Shown here: piece by piece, positions 3,193-36,838 of the stretch
Layout: each line of letters starts with the position of its first letter
Position numbering within the stretch: the stretch's first letter is position 1
Origin: a virus
Direction: 5' to 3' (one strand)
Length of the DNA: 37,836 nt
Virus record (IMG/VR): IMGVR_UViG_3300030523_000001
Notes under the pieces: model-generated
Told to the model about the DNA's origin: nothing
Databases searched by the model: none
The model's input: the letters and a program-made list of their open reading frames with translations, nothing else
Translations under genes and position numbers: made by a program

Positions 3193-3428
3193 TAGCGAGG
3201 GGAGTTATCGCACCTAATGGTCCATGTGAGGACGTGTCGTAGGACGACACAGCAGGCACGGTAAGAGCGCTTTCCTTGCCTGCCCCCCCTGCGTAGGCCC
3301 GCACACGGCGCGCCTGGTCGCGGTGCGCCGGCAATGATGAGGGGAACATAACAAGCAACATGGGCGGGAGGTGAAGATGGTACGACGCACCTTCACCCCC
3401 CTAAACACCACACCACACGGGAGGAGGC

Positions 3429-5111: not shown

Positions 5112-7010
5112 ATGAGCGCCTACCCCCACGACTACAGCGATGACCCGCACTATTCTTCCACGGAGGACAACCTCTCTATCGAGGTCTCACGGCTCCGCAC
5201 GGAGAATACCCATCTTCGAGATATCGTCGACACGCAACGCGCCCGGATCGCGACGCTCAAAGCCGAGCAGGACGCACACAAGGCGCTGCGCGACAATCCC
5301 AATCTGACACCCCTGCGCAAGGACACGCTCGAAGTCGTCTACGAACTGCTCGGCTGTCCGCTCGGCACATCGCCGGCTACGCGCCCCTACCCCGATACCA
5401 TCATCAGCCACGAAAAGGTAGCTCAACGCCTTGGCGTCAGCGCCAAGCAAATCGGCAAGCACCTGGCCGACATGGAGATGGATGGCTGGGTCAAGCGATC
5501 GCTGGCCACCGGCGTCAATCCCGAGAACGGTAAGCCTGTCAAGCACTACCACTACGCCCCGGTCGAGGGACAGGCATTCCTCGCCAGCGTCGGCACCCCC
5601 GACAAGCTCGTAGAGCATCGCGCCCCTGGCACAAGCACACTGAAGGCCGATGCGGAAAAGAGCGCGGCCAGGCGGCGATTAATTGAAGCTCGCTGCCCGG
5701 TGTGCAAGACGACGGATTGCACGATCCATTGCAGCAACGGCCACACGACCCACATGGATGACGTAGACGACGCACAGCCACAACGCGCCTTATCCATCGT
5801 GCGCAACGTACGAGCGACAGACGAGAAAACCGTGAGGGAAGAATCTTCCCTCACGCAAAACGCCCCCGGCGTGATGGAAGAAATGTCCGATAGCTACCTA
5901 TCCAGTGAAGGTACGTATCCGGGGGAAGAAACGGCGCTCCCACTCGACGAGGAGCCCGTGAGGGAAGAATCTTCCCTCACGGTGCAGGACGCTATCGCGA
6001 CACTGGAGCCGGCCGTCACCCGCCACCACGACGCCGTGTGCATGAAAGGGGGCAAGCCTAAGTACCTCTCGATCGGGCGTCCGCTGACCGAGGCCGATGT
6101 CATCGCGCATCTCCTCGGGAAGCAGACGTTCGGGGCGGGCTTGCTAGACGAAACACCCGACGGCCCGCGCGTCCAGGCGTTGGTCTGGGACGAGGATGGC
6201 CGGTTCGACCGTTTAACGCGCTCGGCGACACGCCTGAATAACGCGGGCCTCCGTCCGCTGCTCGTGCGCAATCCTATTGATCCCCAGCGGGGCCACCTCT
6301 GGCTGTTGTTCACGGCGCCGTGTGATCCGGCGTGGGCCATTGCAGCCGCGGAGCGTATCGCCCCGGAGCTGCGCAACGTGGAAGAGCGTTTTCCCGACCT
6401 GAACGAGAAAGGGGGGGCGCGCGTCCGGTTGCCTGGTGGCGCGTATGTGACAGGCGACGGGAGGCGCATCCCGACGCGCGTGGCAGCGGGAACGAAGGAT
6501 GGGCCTGGGGAGTGGCTCGACGGTACGACGCCAGAGGCGTGGGCGCTCATCGGCGTGGCCCTGTCGGACCCGGAGATCCTCGGGGCGACGTTTGTTCCGC
6601 GAGAGGATCGCCCCAAGTTGCGGCCCGCACGCCATGCGCCCCTCGTGCAGCGACGCCCGATAACGCCCAGGGCGGGCACCGCGTTCTTCGCCCGATTCAA
6701 TGCGGAGAACCCAATTGAGAGTATGGTTGACATCGACCGACGCGGTTTCTTTACGGCGCCATGGCGGTCTGAGCGAACGGCGAGCGTCCACGTCTACGCT
6801 GACGGTCAGCGGTGGAAGGACTTTGGGCCTGATAAGCGTGGTGGCGATGCCTTTGATCTATGGTGTGCGCTGAATGGATACTGGCCGACTGGGGCGGATC
6901 GTCCTGATCGGAAGCCGGCCTATGCCGCACTGAACCCCCATCCAGCACGAGAAGGGGAGGTGCCTATACCGGACGGTACCGCAGCCAGGCCGCAGGAGGT
7001 GTCACGATGA
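5112..7010 (+). CDS. Putative replication initiator/primase (632 aa): N-terminal coiled coil plus winged HTH, acidic linker, AEP-like core, degenerate CHC2-like C-terminal module
   Basis: wHTH ..VAQRLGVSAKQIGKHLADMEMDGWVKR.. . AEP-like motifs ..ALVWDEDG.. (DxD) and ..RGHLWLLF.. (His motif). C-terminus ..SVHVYADGQRWKDFGPDKRGGDAFDLW.. resembles a primase zinc-finger module without its cysteines. Confidence 0.5.
   Translation: MSAYPHDYSDDPHYSSTEDNLSIEVSRLRTENTHLRDIVDTQRARIATLKAEQDAHKALRDNPNLTPLRKDTLEVVYELLGCPLGTSPATRPYPDTIISHEKVAQRLGVSAKQIGKHLADMEMDGWVKRSLATGVNPENGKPVKHYHYAPVEGQAFLASVGTPDKLVEHRAPGTSTLKADAEKSAARRRLIEARCPVCKTTDCTIHCSNGHTTHMDDVDDAQPQRALSIVRNVRATDEKTVREESSLTQNAPGVMEEMSDSYLSSEGTYPGEETALPLDEEPVREESSLTVQDAIATLEPAVTRHHDAVCMKGGKPKYLSIGRPLTEADVIAHLLGKQTFGAGLLDETPDGPRVQALVWDEDGRFDRLTRSATRLNNAGLRPLLVRNPIDPQRGHLWLLFTAPCDPAWAIAAAERIAPELRNVEERFPDLNEKGGARVRLPGGAYVTGDGRRIPTRVAAGTKDGPGEWLDGTTPEAWALIGVALSDPEILGATFVPREDRPKLRPARHAPLVQRRPITPRAGTAFFARFNAENPIESMVDIDRRGFFTAPWRSERTASVHVYADGQRWKDFGPDKRGGDAFDLWCALNGYWPTGADRPDRKPAYAALNPHPAREGEVPIPDGTAARPQEVSR
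5831..5855. repeat. 25-bp perfect palindrome CGTGAGGGAAGAATCTTCCCTCACG, copy 1
   Basis: Verified arm by arm. Encodes VREESSLT in the primase linker. Confidence 0.95.
5957..5981. repeat. 25-bp perfect palindrome CGTGAGGGAAGAATCTTCCCTCACG, copy 2
   Basis: Identical to copy 1 and 126 bp downstream. Palindromic over 27 bp with flanking C/G. Confidence 0.95.
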
Positions 7011-7980: not shown

Positions 7981-8507
7981 GCGACTTGCAGCAGCTCATC
8001 CGGCAAGCGGTCCATCAAGGAGTGACTGGCGCAACTTGGCGAACCTCAAAGCCAGCCTCAGACGCGCTGGCCTTCATCTACACGGAGACCAAACCCATGA
8101 CTAAAGGCCCCAAGCGACACGTCGTAGACACGCTCGCGAACGCGCCGCAGAGTCGCTTTATGCAGCTCCACGAGTCCGTCGAGGGCCAGGCGCTGCCCCC
8201 GCTCCGTGCCGATTTCGTCGCGCACCTCGACCGGGTACGCGCCCAGGCCAACACCACGGACGCCAAGGAAGCGGCTTGTGCCGAGATGGCCGACCTCGAC
8301 GACGAGCGGAAAGGAGCGGCGTTGGCCCGGTTGCGGGAAGAGCACGGCCGCCTCTATGGCGTCTTGTTCCTGACTGACCTGCAGGGCTTGTCTCTCCGGG
8401 CGACCGGCCGGCACTTGGGGATGGACCATCACACCGTTGTAAAGCATCGCGGCCGGGCTATTGCGCTGATACGAGCCTGGTCTACAGACGACCGGCAAGC
8501 GAGTTGA
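7977..8507 (+). CDS. DNA-binding protein with sigma-70 region-4/LuxR-like C-terminal HTH (176 aa)
   Basis: ..LFLTDLQGLSLRATGRHLGMDHHTVVKHRGRAIALIR.. . GTGA overlap with the J-domain gene stop. Confidence 0.55.
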   Translation: MSDLQQLIRQAVHQGVTGATWRTSKPASDALAFIYTETKPMTKGPKRHVVDTLANAPQSRFMQLHESVEGQALPPLRADFVAHLDRVRAQANTTDAKEAACAEMADLDDERKGAALARLREEHGRLYGVLFLTDLQGLSLRATGRHLGMDHHTVVKHRGRAIALIRAWSTDDRQAS

Positions 8508-8874
8508 CCCTCGCCGCCACACCCGCGTCGTCAAAGTGGCGACGAATAGTGCGTGCGGCCTTGCTCGGTTCCAGTGAGATGCTGATGCGCTGCTTGACTA
8601 ACCCCGCATCTTTCGCCGCCGCCCGCACACTCGGGAAGTCGCCCTCCTTCATGCGGTCGAGGATGTCGGGGCGGTCGCGAGCGATGCGAGCGGTCAAATA
8701 ATCGGCGCTATTCCCACGATCAACAAGTGTTACGTCGTCACGCTTATTGGCTTGTTGCTCTAACGTAGGGCGCCAGGGGTCAAGCAGCATAGCCGGTTGT
8801 TGCGCCCGCGTCATCACCACGGCCGTCGATGTCTTGGCCGTCTCGCCTATCTCGGCCACGAGCAGCGCATCCAT
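8482..8874 (-). CDS. Hypothetical DNA-binding protein (130 aa), loosely ParB/KorB-HTH-like
   Basis: ..NSADYLTARIARDRPDILDRMKEGDFPSVRAAAKDAGL.. resembles HTH segments of phage/plasmid ParB-like proteins. Convergent with the upstream block. Confidence 0.4.
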   Translation of the reverse strand: MDALLVAEIGETAKTSTAVVMTRAQQPAMLLDPWRPTLEQQANKRDDVTLVDRGNSADYLTARIARDRPDILDRMKEGDFPSVRAAAKDAGLVKQRISISLEPSKAARTIRRHFDDAGVAARVNSLAGRL

Positions 8875-16268: not shown

Positions 16269-17201
16269 ATGCGAGACATCGACCGCCTTATCGACGCGGC
16301 CCGTCAGCAACGCTGGGGCGTCGAGCGGCGCAAATCGGGCCACTTCATGCTCACGCCGCCATCGCGAGGGTCCCCGCTCATTGTAGTCGCCGGTACGCCG
16401 AGCGACCACCGCGCCTACGCCAAAATTCGCGCACAACTCAAACGCGCCGGTCTCGTGTTGCCGGACGATCATACACCAAAGGAAACCTCAGCCATGCCAC
16501 GCCGACAAACCACACCCACGAAAACCAGCCGCAGTCAACGGGCGAGTGCTGCGAGCGCCAAGGCAGCCGTGACCCGCGTTCCGCGAACCAACGTGGTCGA
16601 CGCGTTGCCCACACCCCTCTCACGCGCGGATGAAGCGCGATTCGCAGCCGAGCAACGCGCCCTTGCCAAGGGCGACACGCTCCAGGCCGAGACCAAGCTG
16701 GATCGTGACCTGGCGCACCTGGCCGACCCAAACGCGGGCCGGCGCACGGTCACATCTAGGCAGAGAAGGGCGCCGCAGGAACAGGCGCTTGTCTACCGCG
16801 GCAGTCGCACACGCGGTGCCTTGGTCTTGGTCGCGCAAGAGATCGAGATCCTCGTGCCGGACGAGGACAACGACGCCAGGGTCGCCGAGATGCAGGCCGT
16901 CATCCCCGGCATGGACGAAGATAGCCAGCGCGCGGCGTGGGCCGCCGCTGCCGCCCTCCGCAATCGTGAGCCGGAGCCCTACGTGCCGCTCGCGGAGCGG
17001 TTGATCCTCAGTGGCATCCACTACCACTTCTCGCTCGGAAAGTCCACACTTGTCCACGAGGACGATGTGGACTACGTGCTCGCCTATCCCGCCTACCGCA
17101 TCGAGCGCGTTGGCGACATCAACGATAAAGAGGACGCGCTGCCGCCCGCGATTGTTCGTCGGAACACAGCGGCCGCGACGACCCAGCGGCAGAGGGCATA
17201 G
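16269..17201 (+). CDS. Hypothetical protein (310 aa) with HicA/YcfA-like N-terminal module and basic middle region
   Basis: ..RQQRWGVERRKSGHFMLTPPSRGSPLIVVAGTPSDHRAYAKIRAQLKRAGL.. resembles the HicA fold pattern (tentative). GGGGAG upstream of the ATG. Confidence 0.5.
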   Translation: MRDIDRLIDAARQQRWGVERRKSGHFMLTPPSRGSPLIVVAGTPSDHRAYAKIRAQLKRAGLVLPDDHTPKETSAMPRRQTTPTKTSRSQRASAASAKAAVTRVPRTNVVDALPTPLSRADEARFAAEQRALAKGDTLQAETKLDRDLAHLADPNAGRRTVTSRQRRAPQEQALVYRGSRTRGALVLVAQEIEILVPDEDNDARVAEMQAVIPGMDEDSQRAAWAAAAALRNREPEPYVPLAERLILSGIHYHFSLGKSTLVHEDDVDYVLAYPAYRIERVGDINDKEDALPPAIVRRNTAAATTQRQRA

Positions 17202-17736: not shown

Positions 17737-18237
17737 ATGCCCCGCGTCTGTACCATCTGCACGCGTCCAGAGCGCGAGGCCATTGACCGGGCGCTGGTGG
17801 GTGGGACAGCGTGCCGAGAAGTTGCCGCGTTATACCGCGTTTCACCGGATGCGGTGGAGCGCCATAAAGGGGCGCACCTACCCCAAATGCTCACTGAAAC
17901 GCGGCAGGCGCGTGAGGAGGCGCACGCGCTCGATGTTGTGAAGCAGTTGCGCGTCATCAATGGCGTGAGCTTGCAGATCCTGAACGAGGCGCGACAGGGC
18001 AAGGACCCGCAGACCGCACTCAAGGCCGTGGATCGCATCCACCGGCAAATCGAACTGCAAGCCAAACTCCTGGGTCAACTCGATGACCGGCCGCAGATCA
18101 ATCTGCTGATGGCCCCCGAGTGGGTTCTGGTGCGGTCCGCGCTGCTCATGGCCCTTGCGTCCCATCCCGAGGCGCGGCTAGCCGTGACGACTGCGCTGAT
18201 GGCCGTAGAAGCGCCCTCCGCGTTAGGGGCCGCGTGA
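17737..18237 (+). CDS. Terminase small-subunit-like HTH protein (166 aa)
   Basis: AGGAGG upstream. MPRVCTICTRPEREAIDRALVGGTACREVAALYRVSPDAVERHKGAHLP is the Zn-knuckle plus HTH opening typical of many phage TerS proteins. It sits directly upstream of TerL with a 1-nt overlap. Confidence 0.5.
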   Translation: MPRVCTICTRPEREAIDRALVGGTACREVAALYRVSPDAVERHKGAHLPQMLTETRQAREEAHALDVVKQLRVINGVSLQILNEARQGKDPQTALKAVDRIHRQIELQAKLLGQLDDRPQINLLMAPEWVLVRSALLMALASHPEARLAVTTALMAVEAPSALGAA

Positions 18238-18995
18238 TGATCGTGTCGCCCATTGCCTCCGACCTGGCCCGTGCGCTGGACCCGGTGCTGCTCGCCGAGC
18301 AGGTGGGTATCGTACCCGATCCGTGGCAAGCTAATGTGCTGCGCTCGACGGCGAGCCGGCTGCTGCTCAACTGTAGCCGCCAATCGGGGAAGTCGACCAT
18401 TACCAGTATCCTGGCGTTGCACACGGCGCTCTACACGTCCGGTAGCCTCGTGCTGCTACTCTCGCCGTCGCTGCGACAGAGCGGCGAGCTCTTCAAGAAA
18501 GCGCTCGGTGTATACAAGGACCTCGGGCGACCCGTGGCGCCCGAGAGCGAAACGGCGCTCACGCTGACCCTCGATAACGGTAGCCGCATCGTGAGCCTAC
18601 CCGGCTCGAAGGACGGCAACATTCGCGGGTACAGCGGCGTCAACCTTCTTGTCATCGACGAGGCGGCCTGGGTCGCGGAGAGTCTGTACATGAGCGTCCG
18701 GCCCATGCTGGCGGTCAGCGGGGGGCGGATGCTGGCCCTGTCCACTCCCCACGGGACGCGCGGGTGGTTTTACGAAGCGTGGCGTGGCGTGGAGCCATGG
18801 GAGCGGTACGAGGTGCCGGCGACACTCTGCCCCCGCATCTCGCCGGCGTTCCTGGCCGAAGAGAAGCGCAGCATGGGCGACTGGTGGTTTCAGCAAGAAT
18901 ACGGCTGCACATTCAGTGAAGCCGAGACACAAGCGTTCCGCCGCGAGGACGTCGAGCGCGCCTTTAGGGAGGATCTTGAGGAATGGGATTTATAA
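18237..18995 (+). CDS. Terminase large subunit, ATPase domain only (252 aa)
   Basis: ..PDPWQANVLRS..LLLNCSRQSGKSTI.. (Walker A), ..LLVIDEAAW.. (Walker B), ..LSTPHGTRGWFYEAW.. . Ends where the nuclease domain normally begins. Confidence 0.7.
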   Translation: MIVSPIASDLARALDPVLLAEQVGIVPDPWQANVLRSTASRLLLNCSRQSGKSTITSILALHTALYTSGSLVLLLSPSLRQSGELFKKALGVYKDLGRPVAPESETALTLTLDNGSRIVSLPGSKDGNIRGYSGVNLLVIDEAAWVAESLYMSVRPMLAVSGGRMLALSTPHGTRGWFYEAWRGVEPWERYEVPATLCPRISPAFLAEEKRSMGDWWFQQEYGCTFSEAETQAFRREDVERAFREDLEEWDL

Positions 18996-19759
18996 CCATT
19001 GGGGTCGATATTGGCCAGAAGCGAGACCCCACGGCCATCGCCGTGGCCGAAACGGTGTGGCAGGCGACCCCGAACGGCCGTGGCGTGGAAGAGCGCTACA
19101 CCATCCGCCGCACCGAACGCCTGCCGCTGGGCACGGCGTACCCCGTCGTTGCCGAGCGCATCGCCGGTGTCGTCACGAATCTCCATAAACGAGCGGAGCC
19201 CCCAGGGGGGCCACAGATGGAATACGACCCGGTGAGTGGCGTCTACCAGACGGCGACGGTTGCGCCGCCAGAGATCGTCCTCTATGTAGACGCGACGGGC
19301 GTGGGCCAGCCGGTGGTCGACCTGCTCGCGCGCGCGGGTGTCCAGCCTATTGCCGTCTACTTCACGCACGGCGATAGGCGCACCGTGCGCGAGGATGGCA
19401 GCGTCGCGCTCGGTAAAGGGTGGCTCGTGTCCCGCCTTCAATCCCTCTTACAGACCGACCGGCTGCTGTTGCCCAAGACGGGCGAGGCGGCCGCCCTGAC
19501 GGAGGAATTGCTGAACTACGAGATTAAGGTCTCGGAGGATGCCAATGAGCAGTACGGCGCGTTCCGCGTCGGGACCCACGACGACCTCGTGACTGCGATT
19601 GGCCTGGCCACACAAGGAGCCCCCGAGATTGAGACCACGGAGATTGTCTACCTGGAGGACATCGTAGGTGACTACCGCATCCATATCGGAGGCGGTGAGT
19701 CGTACCAAAACCCACACCAGCAGGCGCTATCGGAATGGCGCCGCTACTTCGGTCGTTGA
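18983..19759 (+). CDS. Terminase large subunit, RNase-H-like nuclease domain as a separate ORF (258 aa)
   Basis: MGFITIGVDIGQKRDPTAIAV.., ..LYVDATGVGQPVVDLL.. and ..GTHDDLVTAIGLA.. are the three acidic motifs of terminase nucleases. Overlaps the ATPase ORF by 13 nt in the -1 frame. Confidence 0.65.
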   Translation: MGFITIGVDIGQKRDPTAIAVAETVWQATPNGRGVEERYTIRRTERLPLGTAYPVVAERIAGVVTNLHKRAEPPGGPQMEYDPVSGVYQTATVAPPEIVLYVDATGVGQPVVDLLARAGVQPIAVYFTHGDRRTVREDGSVALGKGWLVSRLQSLLQTDRLLLPKTGEAAALTEELLNYEIKVSEDANEQYGAFRVGTHDDLVTAIGLATQGAPEIETTEIVYLEDIVGDYRIHIGGGESYQNPHQQALSEWRRYFGR

Positions 19760-23898: not shown

Positions 23899-25773
23899 GT
23901 GTATGCGGTACTGAGGGTTGCGAAGCTCAAGACAATGGGTGAGATCGGCGCGTTAGGGAAGCATAACGAACGGACACGCGACACGCCGAACGCCGACGGG
24001 GAGCGCCTGCAAGAGAACGTCCGCCTGGCGGGAACGGGCGACTGGTGCGCCGACGCGCAATGCCGTCTTGACGATGCGCCGACGATACGCGCCAATGCCG
24101 TCCTCGCCATGGAACACGTCATGACCGCCAGCCGTGAGTTCTACCAAGCGGGCGACGTCGGCGAACAGGCCGCACGCCTGTCCGAGTGGACCGAGCGAAG
24201 CATGGCCTGGCTCCGCGAGACCTACGGCGACAAGAACGTGGTCGCCGCGGTGCTACACCGCGACGAAATCACGCCGCATATCCAGGCCCTCGTCGTTCCA
24301 ATTGACGAACGCGGCCGCCTCAACGCCCACGCCTACACGGATGGACGTGCGATGCTGGCGCGGATGCAAGACAGCTATGCTGCGGCCGTGCGCGAGATGG
24401 GCCTGGAGCGGGGCGTGCGGGGCAGTGTGGCCGAACACCAGACGGTCAAAGAGTTCTACGCCAAGATCGAGGAACCGACGCCAGCGCCCGAACTCGTCAA
24501 GGAGCGCCTTGAGGTAGACCGTCCGGGCCGTATCGTCGCTAACCCTGAGCGGTACGCAAGCGAGCAACAGGAGAAGATTGCCGAGCGCCTGGCCCCGGTC
24601 GTGGACGCCGCGCTCACGAAGGCGACGCACTACGAAGCGCAGGCCGCGAAGGCCGAGGCCAACATCGTCGTCTTGCAGCAGCAGGTCCGCGAGATCGCGC
24701 GCGAGCGGGACACGCTGAGAGAGGACTACAAGGTGCTGGCGGCGCAGGTCCGTGCCATCGACCTCCCGACCGTGATCGAGCGGTTAGGCGGTCAGGTGGA
24801 CCGCTACAACGCGCACAAGTACCACCTCGATGGTGAGCACATCAGCATCAACGGCGAGCGGTTCTATAACCACGACCAGCAAAAGGGCGGCGGGGGGGCT
24901 ATCGACCTGGTGATGCACGCGGCCAGCTACGACTACCGCGAGGCCGTCGCCTATCTCAGGGACACGCACGGCGCGGACGCGGCCATAAGCGCCGCGACGT
25001 GGCATGGCGCACGTCACGCGCAGGACGAGGCCCGTACGATCGTGGAGCACGCCGAGCGCCCGACCTTCCGCGCGCCGACGCCGGATGAGGCGCGTTGGGC
25101 ACAGGTGAGAAACTACCTCGTTGCAGAGCGCCAGCTACCGGCGTCGTTGGTCGACGACCTGCACGCGCGGGGGGCGGTCTACGCCGACAGCCGGAGTAAC
25201 GCTGTCTTTCTGCGCACGAATGAGGACGGCCAGGCCGTGGGTGCGTCGCTACGGGGGACGGCGCCGGGTTCGGAGTTCAAGGGGCTCGCCACCGGCACGC
25301 GCCGCGACGAGGGGCACTTCTCGTTCACCGTCGGCAAGGCCGAGATGCACGCCGCGCCCCAGGTCTACATCACCGAATCGCCCATCGACGCGCTGAGCCG
25401 CGCCGCGCTCTTGCTGGCGGCGGGCGATCGCCACGAGATGACGTTCGCCTCGACCGATGGACACGGAGAGTTGCCACGGCGGCAGATCGACGAGGGGCTC
25501 GCCCGGCATGCGTTGGTCCATTGCTCATTCGACAACGACGCCGGCGGGGCCACGCTGTGGAAACGGGTCCAGGAGGCGTACCCACGCGCCGAGGCCATCG
25601 TGCGGGATCGCCCGCCGACGGGCTGCAAGGATTGGAACGACGCCCAGCGCCAGCCCGCGCAGCGCCAAGAGCGCCAGGGAGAGCCGAGCCACCAGCGCGC
25701 GCACACGCCGAGCCATGGGCAGGGCGTGGGGCGGCACACCGGCCGGGACGAGCACGACGACCGGCGCCTCTAG
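23899..25773 (+). CDS. mob: MobV-family (Mob_Pre) relaxase fused to a DUF3991-like/Toprim primase-type C-terminal domain (624 aa, GTG start)
   Basis: N-terminus MYAVLRVAKLKTMGEIGALGKHNERT.. and ..VLHRDEITPHIQALVVPID.. (HxDE..PH.H) are MobV signatures, as is ..GLERGVRGSVAEHQTVKEFY.. . C-terminal motifs are ..GGGGAIDLVMH.., ..YITESPIDALS.. (Toprim Glu) and ..SFDNDAGG.. (DxD). Confidence 0.8.
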   Translation: MYAVLRVAKLKTMGEIGALGKHNERTRDTPNADGERLQENVRLAGTGDWCADAQCRLDDAPTIRANAVLAMEHVMTASREFYQAGDVGEQAARLSEWTERSMAWLRETYGDKNVVAAVLHRDEITPHIQALVVPIDERGRLNAHAYTDGRAMLARMQDSYAAAVREMGLERGVRGSVAEHQTVKEFYAKIEEPTPAPELVKERLEVDRPGRIVANPERYASEQQEKIAERLAPVVDAALTKATHYEAQAAKAEANIVVLQQQVREIARERDTLREDYKVLAAQVRAIDLPTVIERLGGQVDRYNAHKYHLDGEHISINGERFYNHDQQKGGGGAIDLVMHAASYDYREAVAYLRDTHGADAAISAATWHGARHAQDEARTIVEHAERPTFRAPTPDEARWAQVRNYLVAERQLPASLVDDLHARGAVYADSRSNAVFLRTNEDGQAVGASLRGTAPGSEFKGLATGTRRDEGHFSFTVGKAEMHAAPQVYITESPIDALSRAALLLAAGDRHEMTFASTDGHGELPRRQIDEGLARHALVHCSFDNDAGGATLWKRVQEAYPRAEAIVRDRPPTGCKDWNDAQRQPAQRQERQGEPSHQRAHTPSHGQGVGRHTGRDEHDDRRL

Positions 25774-25883: not shown

Positions 25884-27974
25884 TTAGCGTTCGGTTAGCG
25901 CATAGTCCTGCGCGTACTCTCTCTCCTCGTCGTCCGACAGCCCCAGGACGCCGGACGCGCCAGCAGTTTCCGCCGCGTCGACGTCACCATCCTCGTCCGT
26001 ACCCTCATCGACGCCACCAGCGTCGGATGCCTCGCCCGCATCGTGGGCCTGTGTTGGCTCGTGCTCGGTGGTCAAAGGGCCGGCGTCGGGAGCGGTGTCC
26101 TCATCGTGGCCGTCGATGAACACAGGGGCCACGAGCGGGCCGTTAGGACGCGGCGGGCCAAGCGGGGACACCCAACTTTCACCCTCGACCGGCGCGCGGT
26201 CCCTCACCTCGGGGTCATCGTAGTACCGACGCTGAGTGAGCAACGCGGGCCGGCACTGGGGCATCTTCACCAGCAACTCGTCGGCGCGGATATTCATCAC
26301 CTCGTCGGGGGTCAGCAGCGCCCGCTTGGTCTCGCTCTGCGACGCCCCGCCGCGGTCGGTGGTGACGTGGAAGCGCCCGCGCTGCACGCTGCTACTCTGC
26401 GCCACCTCCGTGGCCTGCCCCAGCACGGACTCGCTGAACCATTGGGCGTCGTCGTCTACCATGTTGGAGAGGCCAAGCTTGGTGGCGCACGCGGCCTTGA
26501 TAGCGGTGAAGCCCTCCTCGCCGTAGGTCTGCACGAGCTGCACGGTGGTTTGCACGGCGTAGATGCCGTAGACGCCGGCGCTGCGCAGCAGGTTGATGAC
26601 CGTGGTGAAGCGTGGGACATAGCCGATAGCGCCCCACTCATCGGCGTAGAGCATCACATCGCGCTTCAAGCGGCCACCGGGTGTCGTGCGGGCGCTGGAG
26701 CCCAGCACGCGATAGAGGTCAAGGAAGAACGTCGCCGTGAGCGGGCGCAGTTCGTCAATCAACTCCGGGTCTAGGGCGATGAAGAGAGCGACCGGCCGGC
26801 CCTGGCCGCTGCCCAGGCGCGTCAGGTCGATTTCGTGCGTCGAGGTCGTCGCCTGGATCATGGGCTCGGAGAGCAGCATGAACTTGGGGCTAATTTCGCT
26901 CCAGATCGACCCGAGTAGCTTGTCATTCTTGCGCAGGTTGGACATAAAGCCGCGGGCCGCCTTGCGGGCGAGTGGCGCGGGGCTGTGGAGCAGTTCGTCC
27001 ATGACCCACTCCGCGCCATGGCCGTTGAGGAAGTCGTCGAGGTGGGCGAGCGTCACGGTCTCACCGCTGGGGTCCTTGCCCTGCAAGTGGAAGATGGCGG
27101 GCATCATCACGTCACGCGCCCAGTTATCCCACACCGGCTCCTTGTCGTTCGCGCCGGTGTTTTTGATCCAGGCATTCGTCCAGAGGGCCGTCAGGAGCGG
27201 GCTTGTGCAGCAGCGCAGGGGGTTATACGCCATGCTCGTCTCGGGCGAGGTAAAGTTGAGCAGCCACACGTCGTAGTGCGTGCTGAGGTGCGTGTACGCC
27301 TTCTGGAGCAGTTCCAACTTCAGGTCGGTGATAACCAGATCACGGACGCCCGTCTCGCGCAGGATGTTCGAGAGAATGAAGCCCGCCGTCTTCCCGCTGC
27401 CCATGACGCCGATGAGCAGCGTGTTGAGCACCTGCACGGAGCGGTCCATGGCAATGCTGACGCCGTGGCGCGTCCCGAGCAGGAGCGGCGCGCCTTTATA
27501 GGCGACGCCGCGCATCTCGGCGCGCGACATCCACCGCGCGCTCCCGTGCGCCGTCGAGGGCTTGAGCTTGTGCGGTCGTGTGTACATGAACCATCCGATG
27601 CGCCAGGCCAGCATACCCAGTAACACGAGTGGGAGCAGCACCTCGATGGCAATCACGCCGCCTAGGCCGCCGTGCGCCCGTGTGTGCAGCCACGCATAGC
27701 GCGCGTCGATGTTCGCTGTCCATTGACTCCACCCGATCGCCCGCACATGCGCGGTGAGCGGGCTGCTAATAGCCTGGATGAGCACCGCCGGGGGATAGGC
27801 GAGCCACACGTAGATGTGCCGCCACGCGGCCTGTGGCAGGCCCAGGAGCCACGCCAGCACGACAAGGCCGAGCACGGAGAGGGCGATGCGGGTACGACGG
27901 GAGAGGCTAGCCACACGCCCCATAGCGCCCTCACTGACCTGAAAAAAGAGGTGAGGTGTACGGACTGTTTTCAT
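25884..27974 (-). CDS. Type IV secretion coupling protein (VirD4/TraG/TraD family), about 696 aa
   Basis: N-terminal TM segments. Walker A ..LIGVMGSGKTAGF.. and Walker B ..VMLYADEWGAIG.. . ..SAGVYGIYAVQTTVQLVQTYGEEG.. is typical of T4CPs. ATG 27974 (GAGGGGG upstream) is preferred over the 28184 start. Confidence 0.8.
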   Translation of the reverse strand: MKTVRTPHLFFQVSEGAMGRVASLSRRTRIALSVLGLVVLAWLLGLPQAAWRHIYVWLAYPPAVLIQAISSPLTAHVRAIGWSQWTANIDARYAWLHTRAHGGLGGVIAIEVLLPLVLLGMLAWRIGWFMYTRPHKLKPSTAHGSARWMSRAEMRGVAYKGAPLLLGTRHGVSIAMDRSVQVLNTLLIGVMGSGKTAGFILSNILRETGVRDLVITDLKLELLQKAYTHLSTHYDVWLLNFTSPETSMAYNPLRCCTSPLLTALWTNAWIKNTGANDKEPVWDNWARDVMMPAIFHLQGKDPSGETVTLAHLDDFLNGHGAEWVMDELLHSPAPLARKAARGFMSNLRKNDKLLGSIWSEISPKFMLLSEPMIQATTSTHEIDLTRLGSGQGRPVALFIALDPELIDELRPLTATFFLDLYRVLGSSARTTPGGRLKRDVMLYADEWGAIGYVPRFTTVINLLRSAGVYGIYAVQTTVQLVQTYGEEGFTAIKAACATKLGLSNMVDDDAQWFSESVLGQATEVAQSSSVQRGRFHVTTDRGGASQSETKRALLTPDEVMNIRADELLVKMPQCRPALLTQRRYYDDPEVRDRAPVEGESWVSPLGPPRPNGPLVAPVFIDGHDEDTAPDAGPLTTEHEPTQAHDAGEASDAGGVDEGTDEDGDVDAAETAGASGVLGLSDDEEREYAQDYALTER

Positions 27975-27985
27975 GGTCTGCCCCC

Positions 27986-28237
27986 TCACCGTATCCGGCG
28001 CTTGAAGAACACTTCGTACCGGGTCGTCAGGCCAGGCGACCAGTAGCCGATCCATGCCCCGGTCTTGCGGGACACCGGGACCACATTCAGCATTTCCCAG
28101 CCCTGTTGCCCCATCTCGGCAACGGTGCGCCCCATAAACACGGCCAGGTCGTCGCACATGACCGTCTGAAAGCAGTACTCCCACCGCGCGGTGGTCGGGT
28201 CGGTAGCGTTGTTCGGTTGCTCGTACGTATGCATCAT
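27986..28237 (-). CDS. DUF4177-like small protein (83 aa)
   Basis: ..WEYCFQTV...MGQQGWEMLNVVPV...YEVFFKRR.. pattern. AGGAGGG upstream. Confidence 0.45.
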   Translation of the reverse strand: MMHTYEQPNNATDPTTARWEYCFQTVMCDDLAVFMGRTVAEMGQQGWEMLNVVPVSRKTGAWIGYWSPGLTTRYEVFFKRRIR

Positions 28238-30087: not shown

Positions 30088-32784
30088 TTAACGCTCCCTC
30101 TTCGCGGCCAACTCGGCGATAGCGGCCGCCACGCTGCCCAGGCGCGCGATCGACTCGTTGCGCGCGGGCACGTCCGTCCATGTCTCGGTCGTGAAGCAGG
30201 CGTACTCCAGCGGCGGCGCCATCACATCGACCTCGCCGCGGCGACGGCTGCCGTCCTTGGCCTGACGGAACAAGACCATCTGACCCTCATGCAACGACGT
30301 CATCACATGCGCCTCCTCGACCGAGCATTGCAAGGCGCGCGCGGCCCACGCCGCCGTGTCCTCGTCGTCGCGCACGTCGGCCAGCCGGAACACGCAGCGC
30401 AAGCTCGCGGCGTCGAAGATCGGCTTGGTCGCGGGCTTAATCAACTCACTGACCTGTTGACTGGCAAAGGCGAGGATGAGCCCGATATGCCGGCTACGTT
30501 TGGCCCAGTTGGTCAACTCACGCCCGGCGCCCATGAACTCGGACAGGAACCAGCCCTCATCAATCGCGAGGAACTCCGCGCTGGCTCCGCGCGTCGCGTC
30601 GAACGTGCTCTTGGCGCGCTGGGCCATCGTGTCCGTAATCACGAAGAGCATCAGCGCATAGAGCGGCGGGTCGAGGTCGTCGAGGTTCCAGCACAGGACG
30701 TCCTCCGCGATGTTGACGCCGGTCGCGCGGTCCACCAGGTGCGCGTAGCGGCCCTCGCCGTGCGCAGGGTCAGTGACGTATTGCAAGAGCGTGGCGTGCA
30801 CCTTCTCCAGCAGCTCACGCTTGCGTTCAGTCACACCCGCGACGGCCGCGCGCGCCACCAACTCGGCGACCAGCTCGCGCTCAAGGGGCGCGTCCTCGCC
30901 TAACAGCGCGCGCTCCTCCCCCACCGGCGCCGCGTGGCGGGCGTAGACGGCCTGGATAGCGCGGTCAAGTTCGCTGCGCACCTCGCCGTCCAGTTCCTGC
31001 CCAGGGTTGCACAGCAGGATCTCGTGGGCCGCCACCAGGAAGCTCACCTTGCGGTTCAGTTTCTGGCCCGCCGGCAGGTCCCATAGGTTGATGATCGGCG
31101 GATCGTCCTGCTTGCCGGGCGCGATGTAGGCCCCGCCGCACAGCGCGACGAATGGCGCGAAGTGGTCGGCGCGGGCAATCAACGTCACCCGATGGCCTCG
31201 GTAGCGCGACCACAGGGCGCATCGTAAGAGCCAGAACGTCTTGCCCATGCCCTGAGAGCCCGTGACCGTCATGACCGACGTGGACAGGCTGGGGTGGATG
31301 AGATCGAGCAAGACGAGCTCGTGGCCACGGCTGGCGAAGCCAACGGGGAAGCCGGTCGGTGTGCCGGGATTGTGCGCCAGGAAGGGCAGCCCATTCCCGA
31401 TGGCGCTTGTGTGCCAGCGCTTGGCACGCCGCCGCGCCGTGTTCTGCCCGAGGGGCAACGACGCGCGCCAGAGTGGTCCCTGATAGCCGCGCCCCTTGCC
31501 GGGCTGGATGCCCAGGCGCGTGCCGATCAGGGAGAGCGCGCGACGCGTGGCCGTATCGAGCGCGGCCAGGCTCGCGGCCTGGAGCGTCAGGACGACGGTG
31601 GACAGCGCCAGGCCCTCCACGGCGCTATGCAGGTCTTGCGCGAGCGCGCCCGCCTCTTCCAGCGCGTCCTCGTCGTCGAGTGAGGGCAGGCGCTTGCGTT
31701 CGTAGGCACGGCGCACCGACGCGGCCGACGCCTTGCGCTTGCGCAGCACCCGCGTCCGTTCACGGAGGTTGTCCAGCCCGCGCAAGTGCCACGACAGCCG
31801 TGCCGTACACTCGATGGCAATGAGATCGCCCAAGTAGCCGGGACTCGTCAATTCCTTGGGCGTGAGCAAATAGAGTGAGCGTGTGTAGACCGTCGTACCG
31901 TCCTCGGTGACGTGCGCGATCTCGCGGCGGCGCTCCTGCCAGTGGTGGGGCGTGAGCATAGCTGCCAGGGTGCCCGCGTCGCACGCGTCGGCCAGCTCAT
32001 CGGGTTGCATGGCGCCAGGGTTGGCCGTACGCCACAGAAGCGCCAGGACATCGGGGCGACGCAGGCGATGGGCGGCCAGGTCAGACGCCTTGACCTGAGC
32101 CAGCGTGTCGTCTACGGCCGCGTCGAGCCCGTGGCGGTCGATGCGCTCCTCATCCACGCGCCGTAGTCCGAGCTGGTCGCGCGCCTCGTCGATGACGCCG
32201 GCCAGGCCACCGCGCGCCTCCGGGGCAGGGGCGACGATGAGGTAGCCGGAGAGATCGGGGACGTGGGTACGCGCCACCTCGCGCTCTAACCATTCAAGCG
32301 TCGGAGCGGCAATCCCGCGTAGCGTGCGGTCGGGCGTGGTCACGGTCGCGCTCACCGCGTCGATGACGGCCTCGGGGCGCACGGGGTTACTCTCGATGAT
32401 GACCTGCAACGGTTGCGCCTGGGCCAGGCCATGCACGAGGGCGGCGAACTCGCGACAGACGCGCTCCTGGTCGTGCGCGCCGAGACTGCGCAGGTTGAGG
32501 AAAGCGTCGACCCGCACGATAGCCAGGCAGGACCCATCGGCCAAGATGAGCGTCCCGTCCGGCTCGACCGTGAAACGGCCGGGGCCGGAGGGCAACGGCA
32601 AAGGCCCGGCGTCCGCCGACGCGACGCGCGACGGTTTAGGGACGCCGCCGTGAGAGGGCGTTGAGGCGTCGCCAGAGGGACGCGAAGGCAGGGCGCGACG
32701 GACAGCCCTGGCCCAGGCGTGCGGCGGCCGCAGCGGCGTGGCGCGGCCCGTGGGGCGTGTGGAGCGGGATGGGTTGGTTGTCAT
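30088..32784 (-). CDS. VirB4/TraC-type conjugation ATPase (about 898 aa; start uncertain between 32904 and about 32600)
   Basis: Walker A ..VTGSQGMGKTFWL.. and Walker B ..FLAIDEGWFL.. . ..RSRHIGLILAFASQQVSEL.. is also typical. The N-terminal about 100 aa are low complexity. Confidence 0.8.
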   Translation of the reverse strand: MTTNPSRSTRPTGRATPLRPPHAWARAVRRALPSRPSGDASTPSHGGVPKPSRVASADAGPLPLPSGPGRFTVEPDGTLILADGSCLAIVRVDAFLNLRSLGAHDQERVCREFAALVHGLAQAQPLQVIIESNPVRPEAVIDAVSATVTTPDRTLRGIAAPTLEWLEREVARTHVPDLSGYLIVAPAPEARGGLAGVIDEARDQLGLRRVDEERIDRHGLDAAVDDTLAQVKASDLAAHRLRRPDVLALLWRTANPGAMQPDELADACDAGTLAAMLTPHHWQERRREIAHVTEDGTTVYTRSLYLLTPKELTSPGYLGDLIAIECTARLSWHLRGLDNLRERTRVLRKRKASAASVRRAYERKRLPSLDDEDALEEAGALAQDLHSAVEGLALSTVVLTLQAASLAALDTATRRALSLIGTRLGIQPGKGRGYQGPLWRASLPLGQNTARRRAKRWHTSAIGNGLPFLAHNPGTPTGFPVGFASRGHELVLLDLIHPSLSTSVMTVTGSQGMGKTFWLLRCALWSRYRGHRVTLIARADHFAPFVALCGGAYIAPGKQDDPPIINLWDLPAGQKLNRKVSFLVAAHEILLCNPGQELDGEVRSELDRAIQAVYARHAAPVGEERALLGEDAPLERELVAELVARAAVAGVTERKRELLEKVHATLLQYVTDPAHGEGRYAHLVDRATGVNIAEDVLCWNLDDLDPPLYALMLFVITDTMAQRAKSTFDATRGASAEFLAIDEGWFLSEFMGAGRELTNWAKRSRHIGLILAFASQQVSELIKPATKPIFDAASLRCVFRLADVRDDEDTAAWAARALQCSVEEAHVMTSLHEGQMVLFRQAKDGSRRRGEVDVMAPPLEYACFTTETWTDVPARNESIARLGSVAAAIAELAAKRER

Positions 32785-33106
32785 GGCGTACGTCCTTACT
32801 GGCGCTGATGTAGGTATGACGGCGCAGGCTGTAGAACAGGTGTTGCCGGATGGTGGGCTCCCGGTTGGGATCAGCCATGGCGTAGAACACGAGGGCGAGG
32901 CCACCTCCGGCGATGCTCGTCAGGATGATGTGGCCGAACACGGCAAGTAGCGTCGTGCCGAAGACAAAGGCCCCGAGCCACCAGACACCGCCGGCAGCGA
33001 TCCCGGCCGTGAGCAAGGCCACGGTCTGCGCGATAGTGAGGTTGGCCGGACCGCGCCACGGCTCGTTAGGGACGCGCGGGGAGCGACGGTTGGTCATAGG
33101 TTGCAT
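32636..33106 (-). CDS. VirB3-like small membrane protein (2 TM); 3' end uncertain because the frame overlaps the VirB4 5' region
   Basis: From ATG 33106: MQPMTNRRSPRVPNEPWRGPANLTIAQTVALLTAGIAAGGVWWLGAFVFGTTLLAVFGHIILTSIAGGGLALVFYAM.. . Its position directly upstream of VirB4 is the usual one for VirB3. Confidence 0.4.
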   Translation of the reverse strand: MQPMTNRRSPRVPNEPWRGPANLTIAQTVALLTAGIAAGGVWWLGAFVFGTTLLAVFGHIILTSIAGGGLALVFYAMADPNREPTIRQHLFYSLRRHTYISASKDVRHDNQPIPLHTPHGPRHAAAAAARLGQGCPSRPAFASLWRRLNALSRRRP

Positions 33107-34641: not shown

Positions 34642-35379
34642 CTAGGCCCCCCGCTCGTAGGCATCGCGCGCGCGGCGGCGGTCGACCGCACGCCAATACG
34701 CGTCAAGCGGCGCTGGCGCGCTCCCCGCCTCATCCGGCGTTGGCGGCGCGGCCACAAGAGGTAGCACTTGTTCCTGATCCTGCCCCTGAGTCGGAACCGG
34801 GACGACTGCCGCCCGCGCCTCGGGCGCGTCGCCGGCGTCGTCGTCCAGCGACCCGGCCTCCAGCGCGGCGCGCTCCAGGTCCATCGCCGCGCGGGTGTCC
34901 AGCCAGTCCGTAAGCGCCTCCACACAGCGCAGGATCGTCGTGTGGGCGGTCGAGCGGCAGACGCCAAAATCAGCCCCGATACGCGCGTACGAGTGCCCCT
35001 CGTCGAAGCGGGCGCACAGCATGCCGTAGGCGCGCTCGTCGCGGTCCTTCAGCGCCTGTAACGCCGTGATAAGCCGCTTCACCGCGCCGCGCTTGGGGTC
35101 GGGTCCGCACAGGTACGTCACCATCTGCGCGGACAGCACCGGCATCCCCGCGCCATCGTAGAGCAGTGAGGCGTAGGGGCGCGGGTCGATCATGGTGAGC
35201 GCGCCGTCGTGTGCGACAATTCCCGCCTCGATCTTGTCGCGCGTCACGAACGTCCCCGGAAAACCGCGCGCCGTCATCTCTTCGTCACGCGCGTCGTAGC
35301 GATCGCGCCCCCGCGCGTCGGTGTCTGGCTGGCTACCTGTGGTGTGGCGTGTGGTGGACCGGCCGATGGCTTGTGTCAT
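34642..35379 (-). CDS. Regulator with sigma-70 region-4-like HTH (245 aa)
   Basis: ..ERAYGMLCARFDEGHSYARIGADFGVCRSTAHTTILRCVEAL.. . AAGGGG upstream of ATG 35379. Confidence 0.5.
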   Translation of the reverse strand: MTQAIGRSTTRHTTGSQPDTDARGRDRYDARDEEMTARGFPGTFVTRDKIEAGIVAHDGALTMIDPRPYASLLYDGAGMPVLSAQMVTYLCGPDPKRGAVKRLITALQALKDRDERAYGMLCARFDEGHSYARIGADFGVCRSTAHTTILRCVEALTDWLDTRAAMDLERAALEAGSLDDDAGDAPEARAAVVPVPTQGQDQEQVLPLVAAPPTPDEAGSAPAPLDAYWRAVDRRRARDAYERGA

Positions 35380-35463
35380 GGGGTGCCCCTTTCAGCATGA
35401 CAAACGTGCGCGCCAGACACGCGCACACGACATAAGTATACGGATGGGACACTAACGGGGCCT

Positions 35464-35614
35464 CGCGCGCGGGCACGCGGGGAGCCGCCGCAACTCAAAA
35501 TAAAGACGACACCGTGTCGTCTTTACGCGCGCCCGCACGCGCAGGGAGCCGCCGTTGAGGAAAAATTTCCTCAACCGCCCCAGGCTCGCGCGCCCGCACG
35601 CGCAGGGAGCCGCC
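35464..35614 (-). CRISPR. Orphan CRISPR-like mini-array: two identical 28-nt repeats plus one degenerate repeat, spacers of 33 and 36 nt
   Basis: CGCGCGCCCGCACGCGCAGGGAGCCGCC at 35526-35553 and 35587-35614 (61-nt period). A degenerate copy at 35464-35489 has 2 substitutions and a 2-nt deletion. Orientation is inferred from the repeat hairpin, the AT-rich flank next to the perfect repeat and the terminator in the distal spacer. No cas genes in the window. Confidence 0.4.
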
Positions 35615-35618
35615 ATCA

Positions 35619-35939
35619 ATGAAACGGCAAATTATCCATATCGAATATTTGCCTGATGCGAACGCCCACGCGACCCAGTCACCACTCAAGCAGAAGGAGC
35701 GGCGACGGTTGGCGGTGGCAATGGCAGGGCGACATCCAGACTGGCCGCACGAGAAGATTGGCCGCTTGGTGGGGTTGAGCCGAGAAGCCGTTGACAAGAT
35801 CATGCAAGCCGAAGAGATCATAGCGCAAATAAACCCGAATGGTAATATTACCATCCCCGATACGACAGCCCGCGCCATGACCGAAGCGCTCCCCGCCACG
35901 TACACACCGCGGGCCGAAGCGGCAACCGCGGGCAATTAA
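35619..35939 (+). CDS. Small HTH protein (106 aa)
   Basis: ..RRRLAVAMAGRHPDWPHEKIGRLVGLSREAVDKIM.. . The start abuts the last repeat of the mini-array. Confidence 0.45.
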   Translation: MKRQIIHIEYLPDANAHATQSPLKQKERRRLAVAMAGRHPDWPHEKIGRLVGLSREAVDKIMQAEEIIAQINPNGNITIPDTTARAMTEALPATYTPRAEAATAGN

Positions 35940-36838
35940 GAGCGTAGCCAGCGCAGCACGCGTACACGCAGAGAGGTCACAGAACGCGCGGTAGGCGTCG
36001 GTGCGGCCCCTGAGTCCTGCGGAGCGGCTGGCGCGTCCTGGGCCGCGTGTGGGGCGTCCTGGGCACGCAACCGCTCACGTAAGACGCCGATCTCTTCGGC
36101 CTGCTGCTGGATGGTCGCGACCAGCTCGCCGATGAGGTCGGACCCCGCAAGGTCGGACAGCCGCCGGTCACTGTCCGCCGGACGTCCGGATATGTCCGGA
36201 CGGCGTCCGGGCGTTATGTCGATAACATTGGTAGCACGCTCATCACCAGGGCCGTTAGTGTCCGCGACTAGACCGGACGGGCGTCCGCTGGCAGCCATCA
36301 ACTCCCGCACGTCGCCCACACGCACGAGCTTTTTATGATTACCGTCAACCGCCGGGAGCTTCCGGCCGGTGATCCACCGCCGTAAGGTGCGCTCCGTCAC
36401 CCCGGTGAGATGGCTTGCGGCGGCGACAGTGACATACTCGTCCATAGCCGTATCTCCCTCCCTTGGACGTGCGCGCGTCTTATGCCGGTTTCCGCGCTGA
36501 CTCCCATGGCGGTTCTTTTGCACCATGTCCCGCGAATTATCGGCGGGCGTGCCCAGGAAGAGATGAGCAGGGTTACAGCACAGCGGACGGTCACAGCGAT
36601 GAAGAACCAATAGCTTATCAGGGATGGGGCCGTGTGTAATCTCCCACGCCGCGCGGTGGGCTTTGACCGATCGACCGTCGAGGTTGAAGTGCCCGTATCC
36701 GGTACTGGTGCGCGCGACCGTCCAGAGCCAACAGGGGATGTTGTTCCAAAGTGGGCCGGTTTTGTTGACTTTGGACCAGAAACGCTGCGCGGTGTAGGAG
36801 GAAATAAAAGATAGGTGTGGGGTAGACTGAGGTTGCAT
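35936..36838 (-). CDS. HNH endonuclease (HNH_3-type) fused in frame to a MerR/excisionase-type HTH and coiled coil (300 aa)
   Basis: ..CWLWTVARTSTGYGHFNLDGRSVKAHRAAWEITHGPIPDKLLVLHRCDRPLCCNPAHLFLGTPADNSRD.. is the HNH_3 pattern. ..EYVTVAAASHLTGVTERTLRRWITGRKLPAV.. is the HTH. AGGAGG upstream of ATG 36838. Confidence 0.7.
   Translation of the reverse strand: MQPQSTPHLSFISSYTAQRFWSKVNKTGPLWNNIPCWLWTVARTSTGYGHFNLDGRSVKAHRAAWEITHGPIPDKLLVLHRCDRPLCCNPAHLFLGTPADNSRDMVQKNRHGSQRGNRHKTRARPREGDTAMDEYVTVAAASHLTGVTERTLRRWITGRKLPAVDGNHKKLVRVGDVRELMAASGRPSGLVADTNGPGDERATNVIDITPGRRPDISGRPADSDRRLSDLAGSDLIGELVATIQQQAEEIGVLRERLRAQDAPHAAQDAPAAPQDSGAAPTPTARSVTSLRVRVLRWLRS

Follow-up and report, generated by a model that had tools for sequence, protein, structure and literature searches.

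The DNA considered here, hereafter the window, is the IMG/VR virus record IMGVR_UViG_3300030523_000001 at its full length of 37,836 nucleotides (nt), a conjugative plasmid-like circle of roughly 37.6 kb. Between a gene for a 245-amino-acid (aa) protein and a small divergent open reading frame (ORF) lies a region that reads, in minus-strand order, as an AT-rich segment (35657-35615), a repeat, a 33-nt spacer, the same repeat again, a 36-nt spacer resembling a terminator, a degenerate repeat and then the 245-aa gene (Table 1). An earlier note, made from the letters alone, had described this region as a CRISPR-like minus-strand mini-array, devoid of cas genes and with hairpins for spacers, one of them a terminator. 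This description is supported by the core of the repeat, by arrays on sibling plasmids and by family protospacers flanked by AAG. We consider it highly probable that this is a genuine mini-array derived from CRISPR, of type I-E ancestry and without cas genes. That the array is expressed, processed by a type I-E-like system of the host and used against sibling plasmids is a further proposition, which seems to us reasonably likely.

Repeats and spacers of the window array

The 28-mer CGCGCGCCCGCACGCGCAGGGAGCCGCC occurs exactly twice (35526-35553 and 35587-35614) with a start-to-start distance of 61 nt, just as the earlier note had it, and 100 shuffles yielded no chance match to it, even with three mismatches. 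Both copies share 26 of 28 positions with the consensus of the plasmid family described below. The third, decayed copy reported in the note is real (24/28 identical to the same consensus), but it occupies 35462-35489 rather than 35464-35489 and starts 64 nt, not one 61-nt period, before the next copy. Spacer 2 therefore measures 36 nt, and the two units of the window measure 61 and 64 nt. The core hairpin is gone from this trailer repeat. A fourth decayed repeat considered at 35648-35676 is unsupported by the family hidden Markov model (HMM), and a scan of the window with this model found no further arrays. Copies of the array region recovered from other samples are all identical to the window, so that close relatives are uninformative.

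The minus-strand core of the window repeat, GCTCCCTGCGCGTGCGGG, is identical at 17 of 18 positions to the core of an actinobacterial type I-E repeat, and sibling cores are identical at all 18. This type I-E repeat, (C/G)TGCTCCCCGCGCGTGCGGGGATGGTCCC, was found by scanning one genome per species with the query GCTCCCYGCGCGTGCGGG: arrays of 60-62-nt period occur in at least 45 genome loci (120 matches listed), most carriers among the matches listed being Streptomyces, Kitasatospora and Salinactinospora. The type I-E system to which this repeat belongs has been shown by experiment to be active and has a strictly conserved AAG protospacer-adjacent motif, or PAM (PMC4762764). Comparison of the 28-mer with known repeats, a check proposed at the outset, thus led through the core to the repeat of 61-nt-period type I-E arrays, and the type I geometry suspected from the spacing can be narrowed to I-E by the same core and the 61-nt period, which holds for the two intact repeats. 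Aligned on the core, the whole window repeat shares 20 of 29 positions with the Streptomyces repeat. The 28-29-nt length and the palindromic core of a Cas6e hairpin are present; the conserved 8-nt 3' end of type I-E repeats (AUGGUCCC or AUAAACCG) is found in neither the window nor the family. The family consensus folds as CCCGC-GCGU-GCGGG. In the window, a G-to-A change on the plus strand converts a C-G pair into a U-G pair of the minus-strand RNA, where the stem is kept in weaker form, and would break the stem in a plus-strand RNA. The stem-loop likened in the note to Cas6-processed repeats is accordingly retained on the minus strand, where a G-U pair closes the gap, but it is not followed by the 8-nt handle.

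Rfam gave no CRISPR-DR or other family match, either at gathering thresholds or at E values up to 10 at the locus, and a blastn search of the locus against phage and plasmid records returned nothing. With a sibling array as query, blastn found only Streptomyces type I-E arrays at 70-80% identity. Scans of viral contigs with the window core gave single chance matches within genes only.

Both window spacers (TTGAGGAAAAATTTCCTCAA together with its 11-nt flank, and AAGACGACACCGTGTCGTCTT) are self-complementary. Spacer 1 opens with a 22-nt palindrome (35554-35575) of two 10-bp arms around a 2-nt loop, exactly as first described, and resembles a spacer at the equivalent locus of sibling L140 in a different register. 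In spacer 2, the hairpin and the TTTTGAG that follows it were called as a terminator in minus-strand orientation; the hairpin proved longer than had been proposed (12 bp at 35501-35525 instead of 10 bp at 35502-35524). Spacer 2 is thus predicted to be an intrinsic-terminator-like element that would end the array transcript. The AT-rich leader suggested on the other side exists (35615-35657, 33% GC), but it is no ordinary leader. The 106-aa ORF has its annotated start within this segment, and the initial 13 codons of that ORF (MKRQIIHIEYLPD) are homologous to a palindromic hot-spot segment within the corresponding gene of sibling L165 (VKRQIIHMNNLPD). The palindrome of the leader segment, imperfect in the window, is perfect in L134 and L139, where it shows symmetric differences. 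On the minus strand, a -10-like GATAAT occupies 35636-35631, and the transcript running from it to the terminator would be about 130 nt long, with a predicted fold much better than that of shuffled controls (z = -5.9).

Table 1. Coordinates of the window array, of neighbouring and transfer genes, and of the matches of sibling spacers (window positions unless a sibling locus is named)
Feature	Position	Strand	Description
Array-bearing intergenic region	35380-35618		Between 245-aa gene (-) and small ORF (+)
Leader-proximal CRISPR repeat	35587-35614	-	Minus-strand sequence GGCGGCTCCCTGCGCGTGCGGGCGCGCG; exact duplicate of 35526-35553; nhmmer E = 1e-5
Second CRISPR repeat	35526-35553	-	Identical to 35587-35614; nhmmer E = 8e-5
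Degenerate trailer repeat	35462-35489	-	Minus-strand sequence GGCGGCTCCCCGCGTGCCCGCGCGCGAG; ungapped; nhmmer E = 0.06
Spacer 1	35554-35586	-	33 nt; palindrome GTTGAGGAAA-AA-TTTCCTCAAC at 35554-35575
Spacer 2	35490-35525	-	36 nt; 12-bp hairpin 35501-35525, then TTTTGAG on minus strand
AT-rich leader-proximal segment	35615-35657	-	33% GC; imperfect palindrome 35626-35653; putative leader/promoter/operator region common with divergent small gene
Conserved trailer flank	35380-35461	-	GCCCCGTTAGTGTCCCATCCGTATACT... and upstream region of 245-aa gene
245-aa gene	34642-35379	-	Weak Sigma70_r4-like match; immediately downstream of array, same direction
Small helix-turn-helix (HTH)-like gene	35619-35939	+	106-aa ORF; divergent from array; HTH matches below threshold, E ~0.02-0.04
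Mob_Pre relaxase fused to Toprim domain	23899-25773		
Type IV coupling protein	25884-28184		
VirB4/TraC-like ATPase	30088-32904		
Match of L146/L167 spacer	8719-8751		32/33; 5' flank AAG; in 130-aa gene 8482-8874 (-)
Match of L163 spacer	L140 3107-3139		33/33; 5' flank AAG; HTH-gene homolog
Match of spacer common to L147, L163, L165 and L175	L187 4279-4311		33/33; 5' flank AAA; 130-aa-gene homolog
Match of L178 spacer	L183 7721-7753		30/33; 5' flank not AAG; DnaB gene
Matches of L140, L147 and L175 spacers	L134 3205-3248		Partial, in overlapping registers; various flanks; HTH-gene homolog

Sibling arrays, their targets and their palindromes

Sibling contigs, designated here by L numbers, were reached through homologs of the small ORF 35619-35939. 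Their arrays repeat the consensus GGCGGCTCCCCGCGCGTGCGGGCGCGAG with a period of 61 nt; in plus orientation the repeat reads CTCGCGCCCGCACGCGCGGGGAGCC(G/A)C(C/T) and occurs in clusters of two to five, and the family pattern is also written GG(C/T)GGCTCCCCGCGCGTGCGGGCGCGAG. A metagenome scan with the consensus returned 39 loci, mostly GenBank JAABU* contigs, many of them 16-39 kb long. The metagenomes containing such plasmids are JGI 3300031452 and related JAABU* and 33000502xx samples. These loci are mainly plasmid-like contigs, and those examined carry transfer or partition genes, namely coupling proteins, relaxases and ParB, as well as integrases or a Tn3 transposase. The siblings are mosaic, and the modules common to them are 87-96% identical in protein sequence. 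When viral contigs were scanned with the consensus, a single sibling plasmid, recorded there as viral, came to light.

Sibling loci hold one to three arrays of up to seven spacers. At the locus equivalent to that of the window, directly upstream of and co-directional with the 245-aa gene, siblings carry one, two or seven different spacers; L147 and L165 have their two leader-distal spacers in common and differ at the leader end. Such differences at one locus, together with polarised sharing, indicate arrays that gain and lose spacers. Among 76 unique family spacers, the period is 61 nt in 51 cases and 62 nt in 12; 51 of the spacers start with G when read in type I-E orientation. Conserved flanks are found on one side of the arrays only, which is the leader side in type I-E orientation.

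All family spacers were compared by BLAST with all fetched loci after masking of the arrays (Table 1). AAG precedes two of the four non-hairpin matches and AAA precedes a third; since we estimate that DNA of this composition would carry AAG at about 1% of its positions, these flanks support the type I-E orientation and the involvement of a type I-E adaptation machinery. The spacer matching the window is the single spacer of both L146 and L167, and the window plasmid, judged by this match, is itself a target of sibling arrays.

The family repertoire is rich in palindromes. A perfect stem of at least 7 bp is present in 48% of the first 73 unique family spacers and in 2.3% of 392 Streptomyces-type control spacers, the mean GC content being 0.50 and 0.64, respectively. 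The earlier note had found the self-complementary start of spacer 1 odd for an acquired protospacer; this spacer is indeed palindromic, but the hairpin character is a property of the repertoire of the whole family and no quirk of the window array. The offset of the palindrome within the spacer varies, some palindromes are truncated by the spacer end and one target was sampled in several registers, which argues that the palindromes belong to the sources of the spacers. A structural requirement for hairpins in the spacer RNA is disfavoured by the same offsets and truncations.

Where sources could be traced, they fall into two hot spots, the small HTH-like gene and the 130-aa gene, each of which carries a different perfect palindrome per ortholog at the same position. 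In the HTH-like gene this palindrome is AT-rich, perfect, 16-28 bp long and situated inside the coding sequence just before a conserved (L/I)PDTT motif; it reads ATGGTAATATTACCAT in the window (35839-35854), AGCATAATATTATGCT in L134 (~3221-3236), TTATTAATATTAATAA in L140 (~3122-3137), GAATCCTACTAGTAGGATTC in L139 (~3128-3147) and GGCAAATTATTCATATGAATAATTTGCC in L165 (3651-3680). This site is a main source of family spacers. The palindrome of the 130-aa gene differs in each of the window, L175, L183, L185, L187 and L188, measures about 25-31 bp in these siblings and is matched by family spacers in two of the siblings as well. No source was traced for a recurrent family of 30-36-bp palindromic spacers of the form GTTGCCAG..GAATTAATTC..CTGGC.

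The window holds further palindromes. ORF 5112-7010 contains two copies (5831-5855 and 5956-5982) of a perfect 25-27-bp palindrome, CGTGAGGGAAGAATCTTCCCTCACG, each encoding VREESSLT, in the linker of a replication-type protein with a weak PrimPol-like match. The motif is present in two or three copies in most of 19 close homologs and in one copy in two of them, and the palindrome might serve within the gene as an origin or as a site of protein binding. The palindrome of a sibling Rep/PrimPol gene was considered as the origin of spacer 1 and rejected: 19 of 19 close homologs keep a VRE(E/D)SSLT-type motif and none encodes the LRKNFLN of the spacer. A 28-bp perfect palindrome, GCCCCTTAATGCAATTGCATTAAGGGGC, is found at 1038-1065, directly upstream of ORF 1067-1639. 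The site recurs in L155 with two symmetric changes, and L147 has a different palindrome of 36 bp in this place.

Some sibling arrays are irregular. In L139, just downstream of parB, an inverted repeat of about 90 nt (3683-3775), the central ~78 nt of which are perfect, is made up of one family repeat, a spacer-like palindromic sequence of 36 bp (GTTGCCAGATAAGGAATTAATTCCTTATCTGGCAAC) and a second, inverted copy of the repeat; further upstream (3500-3620) there are repeat units in a more decayed state, also with palindromes, and a tRNA-Ile(AAT) gene (3322-3394) stands between the small HTH-like gene and an array. In L140 (3760-3814), as in L169 and L141, tandem expansion of the 11-nt unit CCTAACTCTTG has given a spacer of 55 nt (44 nt in L141), and the copy number of this unit varies among otherwise identical contigs.

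Proposed use of the array and alternative explanations

No Cas family was recognised among 26 window ORFs compared with PHROGs, Pfam, PADLOC or NCBIfam, a comparison that took each of these ORFs to a subset of the four libraries and did not extend to the other ORFs, most of which overlap; the absence of cas genes from the circle had been asserted from the start. Sibling-locus ORFs compared with proteins flanking Streptomyces arrays likewise gave no cas homolog and matched only ParA, ParB and integrases. Since neither the window nor related loci carry a cas gene, we infer that a type I-E system of the host is used in trans. Transcription from the leader side would produce the short RNA of about 130 nt, which type I-E-like Cas6e and Cascade supplied by the host would process and load, and the resulting CRISPR RNA would steer interference against competing sibling plasmids; the Cas1-Cas2 proteins of the host would add spacers. 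The palindromic spacers would reflect their origin in hypervariable palindromes at fixed positions of conserved small plasmid genes, which may be among the few sites reliably differing between siblings with nearly identical modules. Presumably, a spacer can be retained without harm to the carrier only if it comes from a strongly divergent site, and the hypervariable palindromes are such sites. A plasmid mini-array using host Cas proteins against competitors was one of three roles envisaged in the earlier note, and it is the best supported of the three. The array is borne by an element with a relaxase, a coupling protein, VirB4 and cell-wall hydrolases, and spacers matching related mobile elements are seen in the family, though not for the two spacers of the window.

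Several observations weigh against this use. Relative to the family consensus, the intact window repeats carry two differences, and the trailer repeat has decayed. At the 3' end of the repeat, CGCGCG in the window and CGCGAGG in the family stand in place of the type I-E handle ATGGTCCC, and the stem has 5 bp versus 7 bp in the Streptomyces repeat, so that canonical Cas6e processing is unproven. No array with the exact window repeat was seen beside cas genes among the genome matches listed or in the metagenome loci, and no sigma-70 promoter passed in a scan of the leader. The search for targets suggested in the earlier note gave none for either window spacer in the fetched sibling loci, viral contigs or PLSDB: viral contigs held no match and PLSDB only partial matches at chance level. 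Within the family, several hairpin-type matches lack an AAG PAM, and the only spacer of L173 (array 3224-3311) is a self-match, 32/32, to a terminator-like hairpin at L173 2181-2212, also without AAG. Finally, the more than 20-fold enrichment in palindromes is accounted for by inference only.

Alternatively, the locus may be the decaying descendant of a functional plasmid array, no longer used, in which the hairpins persist because they terminate transcription or insulate the divergent small gene from the 245-aa gene. The two substitutions, the trailer repeat reduced to 24/28 with its hairpin lost, a second spacer of 36 rather than 33 nt that is a textbook terminator, and the want of targets all fit such a relic, and orphan plasmid arrays are often discussed as remnants (PMC9071438). 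On the other hand, all 28 nt agree between the two window repeats, pairing in the minus-strand RNA survives the G-to-A change, the equivalent locus of siblings holds intact arrays of differing spacer content, and the targets of the window spacers may simply be unsampled. Decay is in our judgement a rather unlikely account of the locus.

The palindrome-rich repertoire may also go beyond mere sampling of hot spots and mark a distinct biology, an idea to which we attach a similarly low probability. In one variant, capture would be biased toward self-annealing DNA: spacers would be taken, for example, from single-stranded transfer or replication intermediates of rivals, in which only palindromes form the duplex needed by Cas1-Cas2. 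In the other, arrays would have been exapted as libraries of palindromic cis-sites of rivals and would act without Cas proteins, by titrating the DNA-binding proteins of these rivals (an incompatibility encoded by the array) or through hairpin RNAs. Among the full texts searched, none on 'palindromic spacers' in connection with CRISPR was found.

Another role raised in the earlier note is that of an RNA anti-CRISPR, or decoy. The transcript would mimic host repeats, its hairpin spacers would block productive Cascade assembly and the RNA would sequester Cas6e or Cas7, shielding the plasmid from the type I-E immunity of its host. A compact cas-less repeat unit ending in a terminator, with strongly self-structured spacers, on a plasmid that is itself a CRISPR target, has the appearance of such a device, and RNA anti-CRISPRs (Racrs) are repeat mimics carried by mobile elements (PMC10651486, PMC11656645). 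Yet the family arrays reach seven spacers, turn over and include non-palindromic spacers with AAG-flanked targets, which are properties of guide arrays and not of solitary repeat units; moreover, the palindromes are not centred in the spacers and no acr or aca gene was recognised beside the array. These features make a decoy improbable.

A function exerted at the DNA level and independent of Cas proteins appears just as doubtful as the decoy. Here the spacer palindromes would serve as protein-binding sites, be it as operators, as centromere-like sites or as decoy copies of the cis-sites of rivals with incompatibility as the result, or the whole would be a terminator cassette tuning the 245-aa gene, the repeats being scaffolding. 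Spacers and leader segment alike consist of operator-type palindromes that are perfect or nearly so, that of the leader differs symmetrically among L134, L139 and L165, a divergent HTH-like gene adjoins the array, arrays stand directly upstream of the 245-aa gene in the window and at five sibling loci, and the L173 spacer copies a terminator of its own plasmid. A binding-site array nevertheless does not account for a period held strictly at 61 nt, a type I-E core, AAG PAMs, polarised sharing of spacers and spacers without palindromes; furthermore, 61 bp is out of helical phase, no par or rep gene adjoins the window array and each unit has a different palindrome, unlike iterons or centromeres of the sopC or parC type. 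The iteron or centromere reading proposed in the earlier note is rejected, the variable part being different in every unit, the repeats homologous to CRISPR repeats and the neighbours a regulator-like 245-aa gene and a small HTH-like gene, neither of them rep or par.

Genetic context and relation to known systems

Besides the transfer genes listed in Table 1, the window encodes SLT and NlpC/P60 hydrolases. The 245-aa protein is 87-91% identical in at least ten sibling loci, and its gene is preceded by an array in the window and in L140, L171, L172, L173 and L175; a scan of viral contigs with this protein found nothing. The flank 35380-35461 follows the last repeat directly in L172, L173 and L175 as well, and in L140 and L171 its start, GCCCCGTTAGTGTCCCA, follows the last repeat and its remainder, CCGTATACT..., lies beyond an insertion of about 230 nt. 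The start of the small HTH-like gene is uncertain, either ATG 35619 or the in-frame TTG 35709 preceded by AAGGAG (35694-35699). L139 has a frameshifting 1-nt indel upstream of the conserved part of this gene; the indel and the AAGGAG cast doubt on the first 30 codons of the 106-aa ORF, and the real protein may have only 76 aa.

Converging on the small HTH-like gene with a 4-nt overlap, the minus-strand gene 35936-36838 encodes a 300-aa protein with an HNH_3 endonuclease and a HTH_17/MerR-like domain, which is split into two genes in siblings L134-L136. The adjacent ORFs 18120-18995 and 18983-19759 weakly match the N- and C-terminal domains of a phage large terminase, although the element is otherwise conjugative; terminase-like matches are also listed for L185 (10899-11657) and L182. 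A sibling plasmid from the same sample is filed in IMG/VR as viral contig UViG_3300031452_000061. The first 60 residues of the 310-aa ORF 16269-17201 match a HicA-like toxin model (PADLOC, E = 1.5e-9), the rest being without match.

Compared with type I-E arrays of Actinomycetota such as those of Streptomyces avermitilis (GTGCTCCCCGCGCGTGCGGGGATGGTCCC, AAG; PMC4762764), the plasmid arrays are alike in their 28-29-nt repeat, palindromic core and 61-nt period, in the usual G as first spacer base and in the AAG preceding two well-matched family protospacers. Flipped spacer orientations, described for S. avermitilis (PMC4762764), occur in the family too. The plasmid arrays differ in lacking cas genes, in being very short, in having palindromes in about half of their spacers and in their repeat, whose 3' end is CGCGAGG or CGCGCG instead of ATGGTCCC, whose core is shifted by 2 nt and whose stem has 5 rather than 7 bp.

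Orphan CRISPR arrays on plasmids and the targeting of plasmids by plasmids are already known (Pinilla-Redondo et al. 2021, PMC9071438). The present family resembles these orphan arrays in that it is short, cas-less, borne by conjugative plasmids and directed at plasmids, with host Cas proteins proposed to act in trans. It differs in that several mini-arrays occur per plasmid across a clade of mosaic siblings, that targets cluster on hypervariable palindromes in backbone genes and that none of the typed host repeats found has exactly the same sequence as the repeat. The virus-borne mini-arrays that serve in competition among viruses (SPV1/SPV2; reviewed in PMC11656645), which target relatives of their carrier, similarly have one or two spacers, no cas genes and close relatives as targets and exploit host Cas proteins, as would be the case here; the carrier in this instance is a conjugative plasmid and not a virus, and no host array with an identical repeat was seen among the matches listed. 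With the solitary repeat units of Racrs (PMC10651486), the window array has in common a repeat mimic on a mobile element and a predicted small RNA unit with a terminator, from which it departs by two or three repeats with spacers of proper length and by its membership in a family with spacer turnover and real protospacers. What appears to be new is the presence of several cas-less mini-arrays per plasmid throughout a clade, the non-canonical 3' end of the repeat, the strong bias of the spacers toward palindromes and the palindromic hot spots inside genes.

Natural systems in which attackers, targets and evolutionary dynamics can all be read from sequence are scarce. The arrays described here belong to a clade of small conjugative plasmids from related environmental metagenome samples, in which cas-less, type I-E-like mini-arrays cross-target the backbones of siblings. 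If confirmed, this system would show how plasmids separate self from near-identical rivals by means of a borrowed immune system, and it may also uncover either a biased capture of spacers or a use of arrays that is new.

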